This document shows, piece by piece, positions 2,269 through 11,722 of a stretch of 11,738 bases of DNA. Numbering within the stretch: the stretch's first letter is position 1; every line of letters starts with the position of its first letter. Both the position numbers and the translations under genes were made by a program. The stretch is from Fidelibacterota bacterium. GTDB lineage: Bacteria; Fidelibacterota; Marinisomatia; Marinisomatales; S15-B10. The notes beneath the pieces are model-generated. The model saw nothing but the letters and a program-made list of their open reading frames with translations, had not been told where the DNA came from and made no database searches. The DNA lies in contig PBTS01000026.1 of assembly GCA_002729175.1 (NCBI GenBank), positions 65,320 to 77,057 of the forward strand, read 5' to 3'.

Positions 2269-3606
2269 ATGATGAAACAGTTGAGGAAAACAACCCTTTT
2301 TCTGACAGTGACTGCTCTGTTTATGAGCGCTTCAACTCTCAGAGCAGGGAGTGAAGCGGGAGCTCTGTTCCTGCTTATTTCTCCCGGTGCCCGTGCCGGG
2401 GGAATGGGGGAAGCCCAGGTAGCCGTTGCAAACGATGCTTATGCCAGCTACTGGAACCCTGCGGGCCTGGCATTTTTGGAAGGTTCTGAGGCGGCTCTAA
2501 TGCATGTTAATTGGTTGCCTAACCTCGTCTCTGACATGTACTATGAATTTATTGCCTTTCGTCATCATGTACCTACCTTGGGTACGTTGGGTGGGCACAT
2601 CATTTTCCTTAACCTTGGTGAACAGCAGCGTACTGATGAACAAGGCGAGAATCTCGGAACATTTACCAGCTTCATGTTCGCTGCCACCGGTTCCTACGGT
2701 GCATTCATTTCCCGGAACGCGGCCATCGGTCTCAACGTGAAGTTGCTACATCAAAAGCTGGCCGAAATTGGCGCTGGTGCTGAGAAAGGGAAGGGTGTTA
2801 CCACAGATTTTGCCTTCGATCTTGCCTATCTTCAGAAAGGTTTTCTTTCCAACAGACTGGATATGGGTGTGACAGTCACCAATATTGGACCAAAGATTGC
2901 TTTTATCGATGAAGCACAGGCCGATCCCATGCCCACAAATTTCACCCTTGGCCTGAATTTCAAACTCGTGGACACCGAGTATAATAAACTTAACATTGTT
3001 ATGGATATTGACAAGATGCTTGTGGCATCCTATCCCGACATGGACTGGGACAGTGACGGTGCTGTGGGTATGTACGACAAAAAAGGGAAGTATGTGGGCC
3101 CCAGTGGGAGCTACAATTCAAATGGTAGTATAGAGAAAGCTCATACCGATCCAATCTACCTTGGCATTTTTACTTCTTGGGTGGATGACTGGCTCCTGGG
3201 AGGCGACATTGACCGCCCCGGGAAAAATGGTGTGTCGGACGGGAAAATTGGTGGCTACACAAAGGATGCCACCGGCAAGTTTGTTCCTACAGAGGCGGAG
3301 TGGGGAGATTCTGGCTATGGGAAGTATAACGATGCTGGAGAACTTGAGGTGGGTACTGGCAGGTCGAGAACGCTTCAAAACGAACTGGATGAGACGGTGC
3401 TGAACCTCGGTGCTGAATATTGGTACTCTCGTTACTTTGCTTTGAGGGCTGGTTACTATTACGATAAGACAGGAAAGATTCATAATCCCACGTTCGGCGT
3501 GGGACTCAGGTTTTCGGGCTATGGCTTTGATGCAGGTTTCACCCTTGGAGAACCGGGGCACCCTCTCACCAATACCATGCGATTCTCTCTCAATATTGAA
3601 TTCTGA
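2269..3606 (+). CDS. porV: Type IX secretion system outer-membrane shuttle PorV (FadL-like beta-barrel) with enlarged loop insertions
   Basis: Signal peptide (...ASTLRA). PorV-family N-terminal motif FLLISPGARAGGMGEA..A.ANDAYASYWNPA, plus NIGPKI, PMPTNFTLG, LGAEYWY..YFALRAGYY and C-terminal HPLTNTMRFSLNIEF ending in Phe (beta-signal). Confidence 0.85.
   Translation: MMKQLRKTTLFLTVTALFMSASTLRAGSEAGALFLLISPGARAGGMGEAQVAVANDAYASYWNPAGLAFLEGSEAALMHVNWLPNLVSDMYYEFIAFRHHVPTLGTLGGHIIFLNLGEQQRTDEQGENLGTFTSFMFAATGSYGAFISRNAAIGLNVKLLHQKLAEIGAGAEKGKGVTTDFAFDLAYLQKGFLSNRLDMGVTVTNIGPKIAFIDEAQADPMPTNFTLGLNFKLVDTEYNKLNIVMDIDKMLVASYPDMDWDSDGAVGMYDKKGKYVGPSGSYNSNGSIEKAHTDPIYLGIFTSWVDDWLLGGDIDRPGKNGVSDGKIGGYTKDATGKFVPTEAEWGDSGYGKYNDAGELEVGTGRSRTLQNELDETVLNLGAEYWYSRYFALRAGYYYDKTGKIHNPTFGVGLRFSGYGFDAGFTLGEPGHPLTNTMRFSLNIEF
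3037..3348 (+). repeat. Degenerate protein-level duplication inside PorV (copy 1 about 3037-3135, copy 2 about 3205-3348)
   Basis: DMDWD-SDGAVGMY-DKKGKYV-GPSG-SYNSNGSIE versus DIDRPGKNGVSDGKIGGYTKDATGKFVPTEAEWGDSGYGKYNDAGELE. Shared pattern DxD..SDGx(V/I)GxY..DxxGK(Y/F)V..GxSG..YNxxGx(I/L)E. Aligned by eye. Confidence 0.6.
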
Positions 3607-3621
3607 GGATTTCTGCAAATT

Positions 3622-3664
3622 CATAATAAAGTCCTGCCTTTTCTGACGGCGGGACTTTATTGTG
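3622..3664 (+). terminator. Long stem-loop after porV: intrinsic terminator/attenuator or mRNA-stabilising hairpin
   Basis: Arms CATAATAAAGTCCTGCC (3622-3638) and GGCGGGACTTTATTGTG (3648-3664) pair over 17 bp with two G-U wobbles around a 9-nt loop. The GC core is followed by TTTATT, an imperfect U-tract. Confidence 0.7.
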
Positions 3665-3668
3665 CCAA

Positions 3669-6506
3669 ATGATCTGGCGACTGCTCCTAATCTGTCTGTT
3701 CGTCATTCCTCTCCGCGCCCAACTGGTACTTGAGAAGGAGGCTGTTTCTGTTCTGGGCATACGGGTCAGTTTTAGCTTAGATGACGACTTTTCTTCCACG
3801 GGTAACGGTACATTTCTCGCCGAGCCAGAATTGGAGCAGTGCGGTAATTATCTTATCGATCCGCCCCCCCACAACAAGGATTATTTTGAAGCGCACCTCC
3901 GGGCAGTTGATAACTACTACCAGTCCGTCTCCAGAGGAAAATTCGGTATCGATCTGGACAGTTCCGTCATTCTGCCGGAGGAGGCATCTTTAAGCTATCA
4001 GCTTGATGAGACACTGTCGAGTTTTTACCCTTACGATGATGATCAGGCTCAACAGCAAGGACTGGCTCGTTTTTTCGAAGAAAGCCTAAAGGCGGCTTAC
4101 GCTGAAGATGTAATGAATTTCGACCAATATGATGTTGTTGTTATCTTTCATGCTGGTATTGGTCAAGACTTTGCCCTTCCGTTCATAGATCCAACCCAGA
4201 CTGATATTCCATCCACATATATCGATTCTCAGTTCCTGGAAGAACAGTTGGGTACCGGATCCATCACTTTCGCAAATGGTTCAACCGTTTCTTCCGGGAT
4301 CATTTTACCGGAGACACAGAATCATCTTCTTTATAATGTTTCATCAGAAATATTTTCCGGCGTTTCGCAGCCGTGTGATTATCAGTTCGGATTGACCGGA
4401 ACATTTGCCCTTATGTTCGGCTTTGCAGTGGGGCTTCCGCCACTTTGGAACTTGGAAACCGGGGAAAGTGGCGTAGGGATGTTTGCTCTCATGGATCAGG
4501 GATCGAACAACGGTAGAGGTCTGGTTCCTTCCCCACCTGATCCGTGGACGAGGATCTGGGCCGGATGGGAGTCAGCGCGAATCGTAGCACCCACGCAAGA
4601 CGTCACCTTGGTGGCCAGAGATTCCGTTGCCGATGAAATAGTTCGGGTGAACATTTCTACCGATGAATATTTTCTCATCGAAAACCGCAACAACTGGGTG
4701 AGAGAGAATGTTGATATCGATTCCATGAGGTGGGCCCTTTCGGTTATGGATATCGCTCAGCTGAGCTATGTTGAAGTACTCTTAGATTCGGTAAACCTCC
4801 AGCGGGATAGTATAACGGGGGTGATAACATCTGTCCTCAACTATGATCTGGGCCTGCCCGGTTCAGGTTTGCTTATCTGGCATATTGACGAGGAAAGAAT
4901 AACCGGAGGATTTGCGAGTCAGACGGTGAATGGTGCTCGTGATAGACGTGGCATCGATTTGGAAGAAGCCGACGGTGCCCAGGATATGGGATACCCTTCG
5001 GTTTTTCTGTTTACTGATCCGTCAGCGGGGCTCTGGTCAGATATGTGGTTCGATGGAAACAGCCAGTACACCATCGCCAACCCGGCGTTCATGAATCAAT
5101 CGCCCTCTTTCGGCCCGGACACCTACCCCAGCACTCAATCAAACAGCGGTGCCGATTCGTACCTGGAGATTAATGACATATCCAAGGCAGGAAAAGTGAT
5201 GGCATTTACACTGGCCAATTCTCTTTTGGCAGACGGATTCCCAGATTCATCTTTGCAGATGGAGTTTCTTTACGATTTTGATGGCGATGGTGAAAATGAA
5301 ATCATTGGTATGTCGGATTCATTATGGTGGTCCGATTCGGGCGAGATTAAGCCTGAAGGGATTACACCTCGTCCAGCTGGCGACTATCGCCTGGCAATTA
5401 CCAATAGCGGTCCGACTCCAGAGCTTGTTCTTACTTCTGAACGAGACAGTTTACTTGCTGTGGAGGTGATATCTTATTCTTCACCCATTTCCGGGTTTGA
5501 GTCCAAATGGTCAGCCAGCTTGCAACGAGCTCTCCCGACAAGGGTTGTTGGTTATGCTAACACTTCGAAAGTTGGTCTGCATTATGACGATCACATTGTA
5601 ATTATTACACCCGATTCTTTGTGGGAAGAAATGACGGATGAAGGATTGACTGCTTCGTGGTGGACAAAGGGTCCCCAAGTAAATTTAGGCTCCGTTGTAC
5701 ACACTCCTGGAGAGGGATTGGTCAGCATGGCCCATGGTGGTACATACACAGGCTTTGAAGAGGTCAGTTTTGTTTCTCTTGGTGTGGTCGATTTGGACGT
5801 TGACGCAGAGTTGGAGATCATTGCCACTGATAAGGAAGGGGTGATCTACGCCTTGAACCAAAATCTCACCCTTTTGAGCGGTTTCCAGTTGGATTTGGAG
5901 GCAACAGGTTCTGTTCTGGCCGGGCAGATCACGGGAGATGATAATCCTGAGATTGTGACAAAAACTTCTCAAGGGGATGTTTTGATTATTGACTGGACCG
6001 GTAGGATAAATTTTCACCTGGCCGGAGATGCAACAAGTGAGCTGAAGATGCTTACAAACTATCAGGGGAGAAATGCTGTCGTTGCCTCTTCAGAAATATG
6101 GCTATTTGATGAAGCAACGGAAAATGAAGGCAACTCATGGCCGTCCGAGCACGGCGGCATGCTCAACGGCCGATTTTTTTCAGGTTCTCTGTCGGGGTCA
6201 CCTGTTTCAGCTAACAGCGGTATTCTTGACAAAAAGAAAACATACTGTTACCCAAACCCTGCTGAAAATGGTTCCGCTACACTTAGGGTGACCGTCGGTG
6301 AAGCCGATAACATCATAATCAGCATATACGATCTGGCAGGGTTTTTTGTGGAACGTTTCGAGATTGCTACTGTTCTTCCAAATGAAGTGAATGAAGTTAT
6401 CTGGGATGTAAGTCAGGTGGAAAGCGGTGTTTACTTTGCCAATGTGGAAGCTTCTTCAGCCGGGGAATCGGCATCCAAGATTCTCAAGATCGCTGTCATC
6501 AACTGA
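3669..6506 (+). CDS. T9SS type A sorting-domain protein: M6 (immune inhibitor A-like) peptidase scaffold with degenerate active site, FG-GAP-like repeats and CTD
   Basis: ATG 3669 gives a clean signal peptide MIWRLLLICLFVIPLRA|Q (the ORF-track TTG 3660 lies inside the hairpin). M6 scaffold motifs: YYQSVSRG, VIFHAG.G, GVG.FALMDQGS, PWTRIWAGW, EYFLIENR, GLLIWHIDE, FGPDTYPST.SN.G, I.DIS..G..M.F. FG-GAP-like motifs: DFDGDGENEII, DLDVDAELEII, QITGDDNPEIV. Type A CTD: YPNP...IYDLAG...WDV...SGVYF...KIAVIN (about 6243-6503). Confidence 0.85.
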   Translation: MIWRLLLICLFVIPLRAQLVLEKEAVSVLGIRVSFSLDDDFSSTGNGTFLAEPELEQCGNYLIDPPPHNKDYFEAHLRAVDNYYQSVSRGKFGIDLDSSVILPEEASLSYQLDETLSSFYPYDDDQAQQQGLARFFEESLKAAYAEDVMNFDQYDVVVIFHAGIGQDFALPFIDPTQTDIPSTYIDSQFLEEQLGTGSITFANGSTVSSGIILPETQNHLLYNVSSEIFSGVSQPCDYQFGLTGTFALMFGFAVGLPPLWNLETGESGVGMFALMDQGSNNGRGLVPSPPDPWTRIWAGWESARIVAPTQDVTLVARDSVADEIVRVNISTDEYFLIENRNNWVRENVDIDSMRWALSVMDIAQLSYVEVLLDSVNLQRDSITGVITSVLNYDLGLPGSGLLIWHIDEERITGGFASQTVNGARDRRGIDLEEADGAQDMGYPSVFLFTDPSAGLWSDMWFDGNSQYTIANPAFMNQSPSFGPDTYPSTQSNSGADSYLEINDISKAGKVMAFTLANSLLADGFPDSSLQMEFLYDFDGDGENEIIGMSDSLWWSDSGEIKPEGITPRPAGDYRLAITNSGPTPELVLTSERDSLLAVEVISYSSPISGFESKWSASLQRALPTRVVGYANTSKVGLHYDDHIVIITPDSLWEEMTDEGLTASWWTKGPQVNLGSVVHTPGEGLVSMAHGGTYTGFEEVSFVSLGVVDLDVDAELEIIATDKEGVIYALNQNLTLLSGFQLDLEATGSVLAGQITGDDNPEIVTKTSQGDVLIIDWTGRINFHLAGDATSELKMLTNYQGRNAVVASSEIWLFDEATENEGNSWPSEHGGMLNGRFFSGSLSGSPVSANSGILDKKKTYCYPNPAENGSATLRVTVGEADNIIISIYDLAGFFVERFEIATVLPNEVNEVIWDVSQVESGVYFANVEASSAGESASKILKIAVIN

Positions 6507-6541
6507 CAAAGGAAAACAGACCAAAATTTCCATTTGAAAGC

Positions 6542-9472
6542 GTGAAAAGATCTTTCCTCATAGCAGTATTTCTTATTCGAACAGCATTCGGGCAGGTAGC
6601 ATTCAATCATCCAGAACTGGTTTGGAAGACGTTCGAGACGGACCATTTTACTGTTCACTTTCATAACGGGACTGAGAGAACAGCCAAAGAAGGGGCTACT
6701 GCGGCTGAGAAAATCTATCCGCACGTAACAGAACTATACCAGTATGAACCAATGGAGAAAACGCATATCATTTTTTTGGACACTGATGACTATTCCAATG
6801 GTGCCGCTTACTATTTTGACAATAAGATAGAGATCTGGGCCTCTCCTCTTGACATGGAGTTGCGTGGAAGTCACCGTTGGCTCCAGAATGTGATTACCCA
6901 TGAATTCACACACATAGTTTCAATGCAGGCGGCCATGAAGTTTGGAAGGAGTGTACCTGGCGGTTATTTTCAGTGGATCAGGTATGAACCGGAAAAACGG
7001 GAGGATGTACTGTATGGCTATCCCAATACGCTTGTCTCTTATCCTGTGCCCGGTACTACCGTTCCACCGTGGTTTGCAGAAGGGGTGGCACAGTTCATGT
7101 ACGAAGGTGCCACTTACGACTTTTGGGACACACACCGGGATATGATTCTGCGGGACAGGGCGCTAAACAACAATCTTCTTTCACTCACGGAGATGAATAC
7201 GTTTGGTAAGCCGGGTATTGGGAATGAATCCACTTATAATTCAGGATTTGCCTTTTCCCGGTACCTTGCTTACAAATACGGTCAAGAAGTGCTACCAGCC
7301 ATTGCTAGGAATCTCTCCCGTAAATCAGGCGGATCAATCCAATCAGCAATTGAGGGAGCGTCAGGCTTTCCGGCGGAAAAAGTATTTTCGGATTTTCAAA
7401 CAACATTGATGGAACGATACGAATTGCTTACTGAGTCAGTCAAAAACAAAGAAGTAAAAGGTAAGATCATATGGCAGAAAGGGACTGCTAATTTCCATCC
7501 TAAATGGGCTCCGGATGGAGAAAGGTTTGCATTTTTGTCCAATGTGGGAAACGATTTTCTCGGTCAGACCAATCTGCGCATTTTCGCTTTCACCGACAGC
7601 ACGGATGAAGTTATAGCAAAGGATGTTTTTTCCGCCCCAGCTTGGTCTTCCTCAGGAGAAAAGATCTATTACACCAAAAAATCGAAACCGGATAGGAACG
7701 GTTCGAAATGGTTCGACCTTTACGTTTATTCATTTGAAGATGAGGAAGAAGAGCGGCTGACGAAAGGTGCTAGAGCCTTTTCACCTGTTATTATCCCCGG
7801 TGATTCGTTGTTGGCTTACCTGGCTACCCGGGACGGGACACAGAATGTTTTTCTGATTAACTTGAATTCGGAGAAGTCAGAACAGATAACACGTTTCGAT
7901 GATGGACGCCAGATTTCCAATCTTACTTTCGATCCCAACAAAAGGTGGCTCATGTTCGATTATGTGGAGAGCCATTTCAGGAATATCGCAGCCCTCAATC
8001 TGACGGATACGACTTTTGTTGATCTTATGGCTGTTCCCGAGTGGGACGAACGGGATATGACTGCCACGGCCAACGGAGGACTAATCTATTCCGTGGATCG
8101 GTCAGGCATTTTCAATCTCTTTTATGTGAATTCCTCAGATGGTCGCCAAGGCTATATCTCCAACGTTTTTGGTGGTGCATTCATGCCTGATGTCAGTAGG
8201 GATGGTAAGGTACTCTATTCCCTTTATGAGAATGGCGGCTACAGCATTGCGCTCGTGGATTCTGTTCGATTGGTGGATGAAAGTAATGTTGGTTACAGCC
8301 CTGACTATTTCACAAAATTTAATGGCTTACCTGCTCCAATAATGGCGGACGATTCATCTTATCCTGATTCCGTATCCAAGAATTATGAAGATTCATTTTC
8401 CAACATGTTTTTCTTTCCAAGACTGCAGATCGATTATGGTATGGTTAAACCGGGATTCTATTTCCAATCCAACGAAGTGATCAACCGGCTCAGCGTTTTC
8501 GGTGGAGCCGGTATCAACAGGCTTACTGATCTCGATTTATTTTTACTCTTCGAACTAAGAACGCTCTATCCCACCCTATATGCGGAAATCTTTTTCATGA
8601 CGCGACACATCACCAATCAATCTACCCTTTGGGATGTGATTGATATTGACTCGGATGTGGCTTACCGACTTTTCCAGATGGAGGGAGGGGCAAGTTTTCC
8701 ATTGCGAGGTCAGCACAGTGTCACCTTCTTTGGCTCATATCAGAATTACCGTTCAAATGCACTCTGGTGGGTTCCCGGGGAACAGTTGTTCGGCAAGTCG
8801 GGAATCGATTACTACAGCGGCATTCATACAGGTTTGAGGTGGGACACACAGGTTTCCCGAAGAACAGTAGATTATGACATCCTACCCAGCAACGGTTTCA
8901 AGGTTCATCTCGATATCCGCCAGGAGAACAATCGGTTTTACAGCCCATTCGAAATCGTTTTCAACAATTTCAACTTCACCAGAGTAGAGGGAAGCGGTGA
9001 AGCTCATTTTGAGATACCGTACACGAACCGTTGGACATTCTCTGCTGAAATGGCCGGTGGATGGATGTCGGAGACGGAAGTAGATTCATTCTTCAATTTT
9101 TTTGCCGGAGGAATGCCGGGGATAAGAGGGTATCCTTTTTATGCACTTGAAGGGAACAGGATGGCGTTGGTCACAACTACAGCGAGAATTCCCATCATGA
9201 GACAGCGCCACATTCCACTGGGTCCGTTTATTTTGCAAAATATAGTCGCTGGATTCATTGGTCAGTTTGGTGACGCCTGGAACGGGAACGGTGGAAGCTT
9301 TTCCGGAAAGCGATCAGCGGGAGTTCAGCTCCGGTTTGGCGGTTTTTCATTTTATAATTACCCGACGGGAATTGCCGTGGAATTACACAGGGGATTAGAT
9401 AAATTTACTGCGCTAAATCACGAGTATGGCGGCGACTCACGGTTTTACTTTACCCTTCTCTTCGGATTCTAA
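6542..9472 (+). CDS. Omp85/BamA-superfamily outer-membrane protein with N-terminal gluzincin (peptidase MA-like) domain and PD40/TolB-like beta-propeller
   Basis: GTG start and signal peptide (...RTAFG|Q). W..FETDHF.VHF start motif, HEFTH (6899-6913), PWFAEGVA (Glu at 7079), YNSGFAFSRYL. PD40-like repeats FHPKWAPDGERFAF, SAPAWSSSGEKIYY, FSPVIIPGDSLLAY, FMPDVSRDGKVLY. Omp85 C-terminal signatures GG..GIRGY (IRGY at 9122-9133), FGDAW, KRSAGVQLR and terminal FYFTLLFGF. Confidence 0.82.
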   Translation: MKRSFLIAVFLIRTAFGQVAFNHPELVWKTFETDHFTVHFHNGTERTAKEGATAAEKIYPHVTELYQYEPMEKTHIIFLDTDDYSNGAAYYFDNKIEIWASPLDMELRGSHRWLQNVITHEFTHIVSMQAAMKFGRSVPGGYFQWIRYEPEKREDVLYGYPNTLVSYPVPGTTVPPWFAEGVAQFMYEGATYDFWDTHRDMILRDRALNNNLLSLTEMNTFGKPGIGNESTYNSGFAFSRYLAYKYGQEVLPAIARNLSRKSGGSIQSAIEGASGFPAEKVFSDFQTTLMERYELLTESVKNKEVKGKIIWQKGTANFHPKWAPDGERFAFLSNVGNDFLGQTNLRIFAFTDSTDEVIAKDVFSAPAWSSSGEKIYYTKKSKPDRNGSKWFDLYVYSFEDEEEERLTKGARAFSPVIIPGDSLLAYLATRDGTQNVFLINLNSEKSEQITRFDDGRQISNLTFDPNKRWLMFDYVESHFRNIAALNLTDTTFVDLMAVPEWDERDMTATANGGLIYSVDRSGIFNLFYVNSSDGRQGYISNVFGGAFMPDVSRDGKVLYSLYENGGYSIALVDSVRLVDESNVGYSPDYFTKFNGLPAPIMADDSSYPDSVSKNYEDSFSNMFFFPRLQIDYGMVKPGFYFQSNEVINRLSVFGGAGINRLTDLDLFLLFELRTLYPTLYAEIFFMTRHITNQSTLWDVIDIDSDVAYRLFQMEGGASFPLRGQHSVTFFGSYQNYRSNALWWVPGEQLFGKSGIDYYSGIHTGLRWDTQVSRRTVDYDILPSNGFKVHLDIRQENNRFYSPFEIVFNNFNFTRVEGSGEAHFEIPYTNRWTFSAEMAGGWMSETEVDSFFNFFAGGMPGIRGYPFYALEGNRMALVTTTARIPIMRQRHIPLGPFILQNIVAGFIGQFGDAWNGNGGSFSGKRSAGVQLRFGGFSFYNYPTGIAVELHRGLDKFTALNHEYGGDSRFYFTLLFGF

Positions 9473-10366
9473 ATGACAAAACAGATAAAACAGATATCGG
9501 TCATGTTGATCCTTATTGTACCTCTTTTTTCAAGCGGGTCGAAACTTCTCAATTATGAGCCCCGTTTTCATGGCCCACTGCCGTTGATCCAGCTAGAGGC
9601 AGAAATGGATTCAGCTCAGGCTGAAGCGGATAGTACCATTTATCCAGCCAGAGGGTTAATTCTTTCCATGGCCGTTCCCGGTATGGGGGAGTGGTATGCC
9701 GGCGCAAAGAAAAAAGCCATCTTTTTCGTTGGGTTGGAAGTGGCGGCATGGATGAGTTGGCGGTCATTTTCCAAGCGGGGGGAAAAAATCGAGGTTGAAT
9801 ACGAACAGTTCGCCGATGATAACTGGGACCTTTATCAATGGTGGTTGAGGACACCGTGGCTTACATCCAGTTATGGTGATGTGGTCTGTGAAGGTACTCA
9901 CCACCTCAATCTGTTTCTTCCCGGCCAGACAGCCACCATCAGTTCAGACTCCCTTTGCGGGTGGGACTGGATTGAAGGTGTTGAAGTTGTGAGAAATCAT
10001 GAATTCTACGAAAATATTGGAAAGTATGATCAATTTGTTTCGGGATGGTCGGATCTTTTCAAGGAAGACGGGAGTAACGGCTGGTGGGAAAAGGAAAAAT
10101 CTGTGGGGGACAGCGTTGAAATTCTTGTCATGACAGATTTCAAGAATAATTATCTGGACCAACGGGCAGAATCAAATGATGCATACAGGCTGGCTACCTA
10201 CACCGTCACAGCCATTATGTTCAATCATCTTTTTAGTGCTTTTGACGCATTCATTGAGACGAGACGTCGCTTATTGACACCAAACACAGAATCTGCAATG
10301 GGGCTGACATTTTCTCCCTTCGCCCGGTCTGGCGTAGGAGGGATCTCTTTGGCCATAAGATGGTGA
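9473..10366 (+). CDS. Hypothetical exported/membrane protein, DUF5683-like
   Basis: ATG directly abuts the previous TAA. N-terminal signal-like segment, motif LSMAVPGMGEWYAG..KKA..F followed by a hydrophobic helix, late NHLFSAFDA motif, and a C-terminal beta-strand-like GGISLAIRW ending in an aromatic residue. The ORF is well supported; the family assignment is tentative. Confidence 0.65.
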   Translation: MTKQIKQISVMLILIVPLFSSGSKLLNYEPRFHGPLPLIQLEAEMDSAQAEADSTIYPARGLILSMAVPGMGEWYAGAKKKAIFFVGLEVAAWMSWRSFSKRGEKIEVEYEQFADDNWDLYQWWLRTPWLTSSYGDVVCEGTHHLNLFLPGQTATISSDSLCGWDWIEGVEVVRNHEFYENIGKYDQFVSGWSDLFKEDGSNGWWEKEKSVGDSVEILVMTDFKNNYLDQRAESNDAYRLATYTVTAIMFNHLFSAFDAFIETRRRLLTPNTESAMGLTFSPFARSGVGGISLAIRW

Positions 10367-10376
10367 TGAAATATTA

Positions 10377-11138
10377 ATGATTGAGAAACGCAAATATATT
10401 TACCCACTATTTTTGGTTTTGTTAGCCAGCTGTGCCAAAGATGAGATTGATCTCAGCAAGGATGATGTTGATGAGCGATATGAGAAGGCTATGGGACTGT
10501 TGGAGAAACGGAAATATTACCGCGCTCAAGAGCATTTCCAGTACGTCCTTTTGCGGGGGAAACATACAGACATTGGTGACGATGCACAGTTTCATTTGGG
10601 TGAGGCTTATTTTCTCAATGAAGAATACGAGAGCGCAATCAACGAATATGACAAACTTGTTCGTCAGATGACATTTAGTCCACACGTCAGGTTGGCCCGT
10701 TACCGCATCTGCCAGAGTTATGAAAAAAGTTCCCCAAAGTTCTATTTTGATCAGGATGCCACGGACAGGGCAATTCAAAAGTATCAGGAATTCATCGAGG
10801 ATTTTCCCGATTCAGAGTATCGTGATGAAGCCACTGCCACCATTCGTGAACTGCGAAACAAACTGTCTCAGAAAATGTATGAGTCGGCTATTCTCTATGT
10901 GAAGATGGAAGAGTATGATGCCGCCATAAATTATCTGGAAGATCTGTTGGAACTGTATTTTGACACAAATTATGCCGACAAGGCACGGTTGTTAATCGTT
11001 GATACATTTATTATTGCTCGCAAGTTTGAAGAAGCGGAAACTTTTCTTGAAGAGAACGGAGGCGGATTCACTGATGTTGCTGTTCTTGAAGAAGCAAAAA
11101 TACTGATAGAGAAGAACCGGCCCGAGGAGGAGAAATAG
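10377..11138 (+). CDS. bamD: Outer membrane protein assembly factor BamD (TPR lipoprotein)
   Basis: Lipobox LASC (Cys19, 10431). TPR helices YEKAM..L....Y..A...F, DDAQFHLGEAYF....Y..AI.EY, and BamD-typical DQDATDRAI..YQEFI..FPDSEY..EA......LRNKL..K.Y..A.LY and Y.AAI.Y. 253 aa. Confidence 0.92.
   Translation: MIEKRKYIYPLFLVLLASCAKDEIDLSKDDVDERYEKAMGLLEKRKYYRAQEHFQYVLLRGKHTDIGDDAQFHLGEAYFLNEEYESAINEYDKLVRQMTFSPHVRLARYRICQSYEKSSPKFYFDQDATDRAIQKYQEFIEDFPDSEYRDEATATIRELRNKLSQKMYESAILYVKMEEYDAAINYLEDLLELYFDTNYADKARLLIVDTFIIARKFEEAETFLEENGGGFTDVAVLEEAKILIEKNRPEEEK
11124..11132 (+). promoter_or_regulatory. Shine-Dalgarno site for nadD, embedded in the 3' end of bamD
   Basis: GAGGAGGAG ends 8 nt upstream of the TTG start at 11141. 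Confidence 0.7.
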
Positions 11139-11140
11139 TC

Positions 11141-11722
11141 TTGAAGCTCTGTTTGTTCGGAGGAACCTTTGATCCACCTCATGTGGGTCATCTTATTATC
11201 GCGGAGACTATTCAGGAATCTGAACGATTTGACCGAATTGTATTTGTGCCGGCCTCCAATCCACCCCACAAGGAAAGAGGTATTTCGCCTATCGAAGATC
11301 GACTGGAAATGCTTCGTCTTACCTTGGTGAATAATGACAATTTCGATGTGTCCGATATCGAAATAGAACGAGGCGGAATTTCATATACGGTTGAAACTGT
11401 CAAGGAAACGAAGGGGAAATTCAGCCTCAATTCAAAGGACCTCTATTTTCTCATAGGTAGCGATTCCCTTTTGGATTTTCACAGCTGGAAGGAGTATGAA
11501 TCAATTTTGAATGAATGTAGAGTTATCATTGCTCTTCGCCCGGGGTTTCGCCCAAGCAGGATCGACCCCGAGATCTTGTCTCAAATTAGATTCGCCAATA
11601 TTCCACAAATTGAAGTTTCCTCATCTCAGATTCGTCGCCGTGTGAAAAGTGGATTGACCATTCGATACATGGTTCCAGACCCTGTCCGAGATTATATTAG
11701 TGAAAAAGATTTGTACTGCTAG
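11141..11722 (+). CDS. nadD: Nicotinate-nucleotide adenylyltransferase
   Basis: LFGGTFDPPHVGHL (HxGH), PA.NPPHK, RLEML, E..RGG.SYT, LYFLIGSDS...F.SW, VSSSQIR and V.DYI....LY motifs. TTG start with a strong SD. Confidence 0.96.
   Translation: MKLCLFGGTFDPPHVGHLIIAETIQESERFDRIVFVPASNPPHKERGISPIEDRLEMLRLTLVNNDNFDVSDIEIERGGISYTVETVKETKGKFSLNSKDLYFLIGSDSLLDFHSWKEYESILNECRVIIALRPGFRPSRIDPEILSQIRFANIPQIEVSSSQIRRRVKSGLTIRYMVPDPVRDYISEKDLYC

Follow-up and report, generated by a model that had tools for sequence, protein, structure and literature searches.

The window analysed in this study is a stretch of 11,738 nucleotides from a Marinimicrobia (Fidelibacterota) genome (assembly GCA_002729175.1, contig PBTS01000026.1, positions 65,320 to 77,057). 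It contains a row of envelope genes: porV, encoding an orthologue of an outer-membrane component of the T9SS (type IX secretion system), is followed by the genes for an M6-like metalloprotease with a degenerate active-site motif (M6i), for a zinc-peptidase domain fused to an Omp85-type barrel (PepOmp85), and for a DUF5683-like protein. These four genes form a conserved linked unit tied to the T9SS gene set, and M6i and PepOmp85 are an obligate pair. The draft genome comprises 1.83 Mb in 87 contigs and is 93% complete, with 7% contamination. An earlier note on this DNA had described five co-oriented envelope genes, bamD being the last, with gaps of 62, 35, 0, and 10 bp. The open reading frame (ORF) calls reproduced this arrangement: all five genes are on the + strand at the positions claimed, and the gaps have these sizes, the first being counted from the in-frame ATG at 3669. 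If M6i starts at the TTG codon at 3660, this gap is 53 bp.

The porV gene (2269–3606, + strand) encodes a protein of 445 residues, assigned from family models and a PDB match as the FadL-type outer-membrane shuttle of the T9SS. It scored 256.2 bits against the PorV/PorQ family model NF033709 (cut-off 90) and 89.7 bits against PF19572, and is the top-scoring PorV-family gene of its own genome. Its sole PDB match at E ≤ 1 is the PorV of Flavobacterium johnsoniae (6h3i_F, E 3.2e-30). The possibility that it is BamG, a FadL-type subunit of the β-barrel assembly machinery (BAM), was rejected, as the PDB search matched PorV only and not the BamG chain of 9N2D. It should be mentioned that the Marinimicrobia protein contains a lineage-specific insertion of about 125 residues rich in Gly, Asp, and Lys (residues ~255–380); PorV has 311–314 residues in streamlined relatives and 352–404 residues in other lineages.

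The M6i gene (3660–6506, + strand; in-frame ATG at 3669) encodes 948 residues from the TTG codon and was identified with NF052323 and sorting-domain models. The protein is composed of a signal peptide, an M6-like domain, a region of the FG-GAP propeller type, and a type A C-terminal sorting domain of the T9SS. The sorting domain occupies residues 864–940 (nt 6249–6479) and scored 32.5 bits against PF18962 (cut-off 27) and 28.5 bits against TIGR04183 (cut-off 23). The M6 domain model TIGR03296 gave 59.6 bits, below its cut-off of 110.8. FG-GAP_3 was found in three of the four M6i homologues scanned (E 1.4e-11 to 5.1e-10), the value for the window protein being 0.019. The position equivalent to the zinc-binding motif HExxH is occupied by LMFGF in the window protein (nt 4410–4424), and the motif is replaced in all 63 aligned sequences. 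M6i is thus predicted from these alignments to be catalytically dead throughout the family, in line with the dead M6-fold protein proposed by the earlier note.

The opposite prediction applies to PepOmp85 (6542–9472, + strand, 976 residues), which was assigned from a structure model, residue conservation, and Pfam matches. In the AlphaFold2 model (pLDDT 88.1, pTM 0.88), a signal peptide is followed by a zinc-peptidase domain at about residues 20–300 (nt 6599–7441), containing the motif HEFTH (nt 6899–6913), a TolB-like β-propeller at residues 304–575 (nt 7451–8266), and an Omp85-type barrel at residues 615–976 (nt 8384–9469), with 16 long strands over residues 619–973. His120, Glu121, His124, and Glu180 (H120, E121, H124, and E180) are invariant in 35 of the 35 aligned sequences. 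The protein is therefore predicted to be an active zinc peptidase of clan MA, and the first three of these residues bear out the apparently live protease of the earlier note.

In the VIA structure search, the propeller matched the TolB-like protein 2ojh_A (Z 24.7, 245 residues aligned, root-mean-square deviation 3.0) and the barrel matched BamA 8xnb_B (Z 23.3, 318 residues aligned, root-mean-square deviation 4.5), followed by F. johnsoniae BamA 9n2d_A (Z 22.1), TamA 8us1_A (Z 21.8), and Sam50 (Z 21.2). Foldseek with the whole model returned propeller matches only; the barrel came from the wide VIA search. Across 35 family members, Pfam models detected Peptidase_MA_2 in 35, PD40 in 33, and Omp85 PF01103 in 8 (best E 4.6e-16). 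The window protein itself scored 30.5 bits for Peptidase_MA_2, below the cut-off of 32.4, gave no PF01103 match at E ≤ 0.01, and matched the BamA model TIGR03303 weakly (19.6 bits; cut-off 297). Family-model scans of PepOmp85 found no POTRA domain, no M48 or tetratricopeptide repeat (TPR) domain, and no patatin domain.

Two distant paralogues of PepOmp85 are encoded elsewhere in the genome (C43:4649-7789 and C48:774-3944). They have about 1050 residues and scored 216–222 bits against the family profile; that on C43 at least has an Omp85-like C-terminus, and neither adjoins porV. In the ESM Atlas, look-alike "TolB family" clusters were found, the commonest taxa being Myxococcota, Bdellovibrionota, Elusimicrobiota, and Cloacimonadota; these might be paralogous families.

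The gene of the DUF5683-like protein (9473–10366, + strand, 297 residues) starts directly after the PepOmp85 gene. The protein itself matched no family model, PF18935 at E ≤ 1 included; the label given by the earlier note may hold through its relatives, as 33 out of 36 homologues match PF18935 at E ≤ 1 (best E 3.4e-11). The model (pLDDT 85.5) shows a signal peptide, two long helices, a small mixed domain, and, at the C-terminus, a β-hairpin whose last residue is aromatic. The helices carry conserved polar residues (E89, N251, H252, and S255) inside hydrophobic stretches, and the invariant residues of the family are S65, P69, G70, E180, K184, Y185, G191, W192, N251, H252, and S255. Foldseek against the PDB gave nothing at E ≤ 0.001. 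The best match of VIA-align against 48,161 chains had a Z of 6.3 and covered the long helices only, which is not proof of a new fold. A complex prediction run without controls for residues 300–976 of PepOmp85 and residues 22–297 of the DUF5683-like protein gave a score of 0.00 and a mark of 0.32, which speaks neither for nor against binding. Among the papers found, DUF5683 occurred only for the Porphyromonas gingivalis vesicle protein PG0140, as an entry in a list.

The gene is tandemly duplicated in three KSB1-type loci (L079:3119-4796, L082:12063-13752, and L085:12335-14023) and in one locus labelled Cytophagia (L078:4954-6171). It is replaced by an ORF of 670–700 residues in two loci labelled "Bacteroidota" (L067:12267-14372 and L076:12248-14266), of which the L067 copy has no NCBIfam match.

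The gene order was compared in the best 80 loci of at least 593 PepOmp85 relatives, which had been collected by a pattern scan with each species represented by a single genome. The ORFs of each locus were identified by profile searches, and only loci with enough flanking sequence were counted. M6i is immediately upstream of PepOmp85 in 61 of 65 loci, porV is upstream of M6i in 57 of 62, and the DUF5683-like gene is immediately downstream of PepOmp85 in 64 of 67. The complete four-gene core is present in 50 of 57 loci. Four strict misses (L063, L071, L074, and L081) retain the genes and were missed owing to an ORF insertion, to M6i being split, or to an ORF called too long; the true exceptions are a lone PepOmp85 (L088) and the two loci, L067 and L076, without the DUF5683-like gene. 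In 56 of 64 loci, the DUF5683-like gene starts between 20 nt ahead of and 20 nt past the stop codon of PepOmp85. In two Ignavibacteria-type loci, an extra ORF of about 220 residues is located between M6i and PepOmp85 (L056:8318-8971 and L069:8261-8926), the L069 copy having no NCBIfam match.

The labels of these loci include Marinimicrobia/Fidelibacterota, Ignavibacteria, KSB1, Kryptonia, and "Bacteroidota" metagenome-assembled genomes. The identity of PepOmp85 drops to 35–40% across the lineages that keep the gene order, and the flanking genes differ. The recurrence of one gene order in dozens of distant loci is far beyond chance. The neighbourhood survey proposed in the earlier note thus shows synteny extending well past close relatives, into several lineages of the Fibrobacterota–Chlorobiota–Bacteroidota (FCB) group. 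Of the five genes that the note had taken as linked, four are truly so; bamD is not a member, as described below.

Outside Marinimicrobia, the unit lies beside further T9SS genes. The ORF upstream of porV is PorU in all four non-Marinimicrobia loci tested (982.1, 966.3, 1032.2, and 957.0 bits; cut-off 420), and SprA is encoded a few kb downstream in two of these four. On chromosome-scale contigs of the sister phylum, that of the Kryptonia-type genome G001, 15 of 16 loci show an ORF of about 1300 residues (presumed from its size to be PorU), followed by PorV, M6i, PepOmp85, and the DUF5683-like gene. The larger subgroup of these 16 loci is Balneola/Gracilimonas, cultured species included.

Co-occurrence was examined in 301 genomes drawn evenly from this sister phylum. 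A PepOmp85 orthologue is present in 132 of them; six further genomes with only partial, paralogue-level matches were set aside. M6i is present in 132 genomes as well, and the two sets are identical. The pairing of a dead with a live protease, highlighted by the earlier note, is therefore matched by an identical distribution. The DUF5683-like family was found in 136 genomes, including 131 of the 132 with PepOmp85. SprA is present in 237 genomes, namely, all 132 with the module and 105 of the 169 others, and the module occurs in none of the 64 SprA-negative genomes. Among the marker comparisons that the note had proposed, that with SprA covers every module genome (132/132), and that with PorU shows a tie that is not strict: PorU was found in 210 of the 301 genomes, including 126 of the 132 with the module, and not in the remaining six. 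The window genome itself encodes SprA (contig C5) and PorU (contig C49; 692.8 bits, cut-off 420), and has 18 sorting-domain matches on 14 contigs.

The pair is retained together even where the genes are apart. At least ten genomes keep both M6i and PepOmp85 though they are unlinked: in G021 they are 860 kb apart on one chromosome, and in the other cases (G098, G122, G134, G142, G186, G190, G198, G202, and G238) the genes are deep inside different contigs. In this unlinked group, G021 included, PepOmp85 is longer, with open frames of 1106–1205 residues scoring about 940–1050 bits; the DUF5683-like gene still adjoins PepOmp85 in G122, G134, G142, G190, and G238.

The pair is also lost together. 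In the phylum of the window, 138 of 151 genomes at least 80% complete, and 64 of 66 genera, have the PepOmp85 orthologue. The chief exception is the streamlined Marinimicrobia genus g5 (0.8–1.1 Mb genomes), where none of nine genomes has it. Two g5 loci have the order dctQM-like gene, PorV, BamD, nadD, which corresponds to an exact block deletion of the three middle genes; a dctQM-sized ORF still adjoins porV after this deletion. In five g5 genomes, M6i gave only matches at the level of the sorting domain (at most 33 bits) and PepOmp85 only matches at the level of paralogues (150–166 bits), one paralogue being kept; SprA and BamD are kept in all five. The second joint loss was found in the sister phylum, where G264 and G216 have PorV followed by the DUF5683-like gene, M6i and PepOmp85 being gone. 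Five of five genomes tested that lost the pair have no PorU match at E ≤ 1e-15, the same search finding PorU in the window genome. A dependence of the module on PorU, suggested by these five genomes, was not adopted, as it is weakened by the six module genomes in which PorU was not found.

The gene row of the window is preceded by genes of a tripartite ATP-independent periplasmic (TRAP) transporter, the 3' end of dctP and a fused dctQM (1–2153, + strand), which were identified with family models. They share the orientation of the row and were absent from the earlier note, as was a sixth co-oriented gene, nadD (11141–11722, + strand), which begins 2 bp past bamD and encodes the cytoplasmic nicotinate-nucleotide adenylyltransferase (NF000840, 194.3 bits; cut-off 150). 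Among the 80 related loci, dctP and dctQM are upstream of porV in 33, and all of these carry bamD too where the contig extends far enough.

The 115-bp gap ahead of porV contains a promoter-like site (2166–2193, + strand) composed of TTGACA, a spacer of 16 nt, and TATATT. With 11 of 12 consensus matches, it is the top one among the 13 promoter-like sites of the window, a number that is not enriched relative to shuffled sequences (15.6 +/- 4.0). In an alignment of six related loci, neither the columns TTG..A and TATT nor the spacing show any variation. The site is thus promoter-like and conserved, its function being putative. No terminator-like site was found within the intergenic gaps of the gene row, and the base composition shows no break across the window. 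Contigs from RNA libraries bridge all junctions from dctQM to nadD, mostly with at least 99% identity to the window. Two of them (X15 and X16) come from one sample and two (X17 and X18) from another study. X15 and X16 contain an in-frame insertion of 12 nt after position 8946, in the barrel region of PepOmp85; this is a strain variant with four additional residues.

One of the closest known systems is the T9SS attachment complex PorU-PorV-PorQ-PorZ, with the gene pair porU-porV, of P. gingivalis and F. johnsoniae. In the window as well, the gene of a PorV-family barrel adjoins that of a large sorting-domain protein. Like PorZ, M6i combines a propeller with a sorting domain, as judged from the FG-GAP matches of its homologues, and the module is in the same gene row as porU-porV in most lineages. 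M6i differs from PorU and PorZ in being an M6-fold pseudo-protease, and it matches their models only at the sorting domain (22–32 bits). To our knowledge, neither an Omp85-barrel peptidase nor a DUF5683-type protein is among the components of the T9SS.

Three of the proteins had been named individually, and their linkage is apparently undescribed. The model NF052323, "T9SS-dependent M6-like inactivated metalloprotease" (T9SSA_dep_M6i), shares two features with M6i, namely, a dead active site and a sorting domain; it names one protein and is silent on linkage to PepOmp85, the DUF5683-like gene, and porV. DUF5683 is a Pfam entry. The architecture of PepOmp85 (an Omp85 barrel, a TolB-like propeller, and an aminopeptidase-like domain) fits the "WD40-like" Omp85 class of Heinz and Lithgow (2014), the comparison being by architecture alone. 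In the accessible part of that paper, this class is uncharacterised, is likened to a BamA-BamB fusion, and is listed without gene context or a T9SS link; row H1XQ58 of its Table S3 has matches to the BamA barrel, TolB, and aminopeptidase (PMC4104836). The literature searched, mostly without subscription journals, contained no description of the linkage or of a function. The statement of the earlier note that no characterised system has such a composition agrees with this search.

These observations make it on balance probable that the row is an undescribed accessory module of the T9SS in its Marinimicrobia form, together with unrelated neighbours. According to its domains, M6i would be exported by the T9SS via its C-terminal sorting domain. 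At the cell surface, where PorV would probably hold it as it does PorU, M6i might have a non-catalytic role in binding or as a scaffold. PepOmp85 would be an active zinc peptidase that has an Omp85 barrel lacking POTRA domains as its anchor in the outer membrane. Its peptidase and propeller would most likely face the periplasm, as do the N-terminal domains of other Omp85 proteins. The DUF5683-like protein may be a translationally coupled partner of PepOmp85. In the least certain step of this reading, put forward with less confidence than the rest, the M6i/PepOmp85 pair would act on T9SS cargo after or around translocation, and would be dispensable for translocation itself. Sorting domains bound to PorV, or cargo that has stalled at the outer membrane, could be trimmed or cleared in this way.

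Several points weigh against this reading. The window PorV scored 197.1 bits against the equivalog model NF033710, below the cut-off of 250, in two stretches split by the insertion; its syntenic orthologues in the other lineages exceed it, with 250.1, 267.6, and 256.4 bits. Similarly, the window M6i scored 438.1 bits against NF052323, mainly over profile positions 39–544, and the cut-off is 600. It is taken as a divergent orthologue because of the synteny and because orthologues at the same position in those lineages scored 910.9, 1013.6, and 621.3 bits, all above the cut-off. The 105 SprA-positive genomes lacking the module indicate that the T9SS as such works without it; these genomes, which have the highest SprA and PorU scores, are presumably Bacteroidia. 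The genus g5 likewise keeps SprA and PorV without the module. Six of the 132 module genomes have no PorU at E ≤ 1e-50 and 84 PorU genomes have no module, and a model in which the module acts at the PorU step is weakened by both counts. The DUF5683-like gene is alone in G054, G096, G216, and G264, and is missing in L067, L076, and G249. Because related genomes share ancestry, the co-occurrence counts overstate independence; the unlinked co-retention and the two joint losses are less exposed to this problem. The RNA-library contigs also span the dctQM-porV gap that holds the promoter-like site, and as evidence for expression they are weak: carried-over DNA may be their source, and a single transcript is not proven. 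Finally, the mechanism is deduced from domains, genomic linkage, and co-occurrence, and the membrane side of the peptidase, most likely the periplasmic one, is a prediction only.

The side of the membrane is the point on which another explanation turns. PepOmp85 might use its barrel to carry its own peptidase and propeller to the cell surface, much as PlpD, a type Vd protein, exports a passenger, and so form a surface protease complex. M6i would then be the subunit that binds substrates, proteins outside the cell would be degraded for nutrition, and the link to the T9SS would be due solely to M6i being its cargo. M6i is indeed predicted to be extracellular, since it carries a sorting domain, and the strict co-occurrence of the pair (132/132) fits a physical complex. 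The lack of POTRA domains in PepOmp85 and the loss of the module from streamlined genomes, as would befall an accessory nutrient function, are also in line with it. The available part of the Omp85 survey raises such a topology for an Omp85-metalloprotease class, which is distinct from the WD40-like one (PMC4104836). Against this, a folded passenger of 590 residues would be large for an Omp85 barrel, and PepOmp85 shares only the barrel with PlpD, which has a patatin passenger, a POTRA domain, and an Omp85 barrel. TolB-like propellers are periplasmic, as are the N-terminal domains of those Omp85 proteins whose structures have been solved. Furthermore, the placement behind porU-porV and the confinement to SprA genomes suggest more than a cargo relation, ordinary cargo genes being scattered, as the distribution of the 18 sorting-domain matches over 14 contigs illustrates. 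A surface complex of this kind seems rather unlikely.

A bolder version of the T9SS reading, which is possible but doubtful, is that M6i, PepOmp85, and the DUF5683-like protein constitute a second outer-membrane machine of the T9SS, older than the FCB split and lost in Bacteroidia, in which the protease-bearing barrel receives cargo delivered by PorV. A secreted pseudo-protease and a small protein would be the permanent partners of the Omp85 barrel, which bears its own protease. The C-terminal hairpin of the DUF5683-like protein resembles a β-signal and may dock at the barrel seam. Cargo would be processed, released, or anchored there, as an alternative or a complement to the PorU/PorZ attachment complex. 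If this is true, it would be the first assigned function for an enzyme-bearing Omp85 protein without POTRA domains.

The earlier note had instead proposed that all five genes form a module for outer-membrane protein assembly or quality control, in which PepOmp85 and the DUF5683-like protein might be accessory partners of BAM alongside BamD. Their role would then be BepA-like. The bamD gene (10377–11138, + strand) encodes a lipoprotein of 253 residues that scored 127 bits against TIGR03302 (cut-off 81.4), a lipobox, LLASC, being recognised by eye. It follows the DUF5683-like gene by 10 bp in the window, and bamD is adjacent in 44 of 61 loci. The barrel of PepOmp85 is BamA-like (Z 23.3 and 22.1). 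In Escherichia coli, BepA is an M48 zinc protease that polices BAM, according to the parts of two papers at hand (PMC8423444, PMC13478230), and a zinc metalloprotease at an Omp85 machine offers a possible analogy for proteolytic quality control in the outer membrane. Unlike BepA, which is soluble, has TPR, and belongs to another peptidase family, PepOmp85 has its peptidase fused to its own barrel, and genome context and phyletic distribution tie it to the T9SS and not to BAM. The Bacteroidota BAM complex, BamADGH(+M,P), is FCB-specific and contains the FadL-type barrel BamG, surface proteins, and unusual subunits (PMC12611786, consulted in part). The window shares with it a FadL-type barrel and BamD, whereas all module proteins differ from BamG, BamH, BamM, and BamP as described in the available part of that paper, the FadL-type barrel of the window matching PorV.

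The distribution of bamD largely contradicts this proposal. BamD of the window is the only match above the cut-off in the genome, the next best reaching 38.7 bits, so it is not a dedicated copy. The 44 loci with adjacent bamD are all of the Marinimicrobia type and are those most similar to the window; bamD is near the module in none of 17 loci labelled Ignavibacteria, KSB1, Kryptonia, or "Bacteroidota". The gene nadD follows bamD in 43 of 60 loci, and the block deletion in g5 leaves both beside porV. In G001 and G005, bamD and PepOmp85 are on different contigs. BamA of the window genome is on contig C20 (TIGR03303, 398.3 bits). The context outside Marinimicrobia is porU and sprA, that is, the T9SS, so that a partnership with BAM is disfavoured. 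Moreover, the module is absent from 105 SprA-positive and 64 SprA-negative genomes, all of which still need BAM. In short, bamD, a housekeeping copy, and nadD are lineage-specific neighbours and not members of the module, and the five-gene BAM proposal is highly improbable. On contig C47 of the genome (30750–33143), the gene of a 638-residue Omp85 protein that is TamA/BamA-like (116 and 93 bits) has directly behind it that of a short TPR protein resembling BamD (38 bits); these may be a second Omp85/TPR pair.

Still less credible is the idea that PepOmp85 with M6i replaces PorU as the C-terminal signal peptidase outside Bacteroidia. A predicted active peptidase beside porV and the six module genomes without PorU would fit it, but PorU is encoded in the window genome and in 126 of the 132 module genomes, usually in the same gene row, and the five genomes that lost the pair also have no PorU, the opposite of what a replacement predicts. 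It is equally hard to credit that the order was inherited from a common ancestor with the proteins acting independently: related genomes do share order by descent, and bamD, nadD, and the TRAP genes show unrelated genes riding along within Marinimicrobia, but the order of the core is kept down to 35–40% PepOmp85 identity while the flanks change, start and stop codons overlap or abut, the presence sets are identical even with at least ten unlinked cases, and there are two joint deletions.

Nearly all dissection of the T9SS has been carried out in Bacteroidia. Among the lineages sampled here, the T9SS-bearing FCB lineages outside the presumed Bacteroidia mostly carry three extra genes at porU-porV; the carriers are the abundant marine Marinimicrobia and the Ignavibacteria-type, KSB1-type, Kryptonia, and Balneolales-type lineages. 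If an accessory T9SS module is the correct reading, the T9SS would gain new components or a processing step, the "WD40-like" Omp85 class and the DUF5683-type proteins would acquire a first biological context, and M6i and PepOmp85 would exemplify, in a clean way, the obligate pairing of an enzyme with a pseudoenzyme. What is new here is the identical distribution of the pair, its co-retention when unlinked, the two joint deletions, the comparison with PorU, the conserved promoter-like site, and the RNA-library contigs. The reading is directly testable, as the carriers include the cultured Gracilimonas sediminicola, Gracilimonas mengyeensis, and Balneola sp. MJW-20.

A further arrangement in the window genome involves the PorV/PorQ family. 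On contig C9 (11352–12805), a sorting-domain protein of 1136 residues is encoded directly upstream of a PorV/PorQ-family gene (121 bits), a pairing that recalls the PorU2/PorV2 models of NCBIfam.

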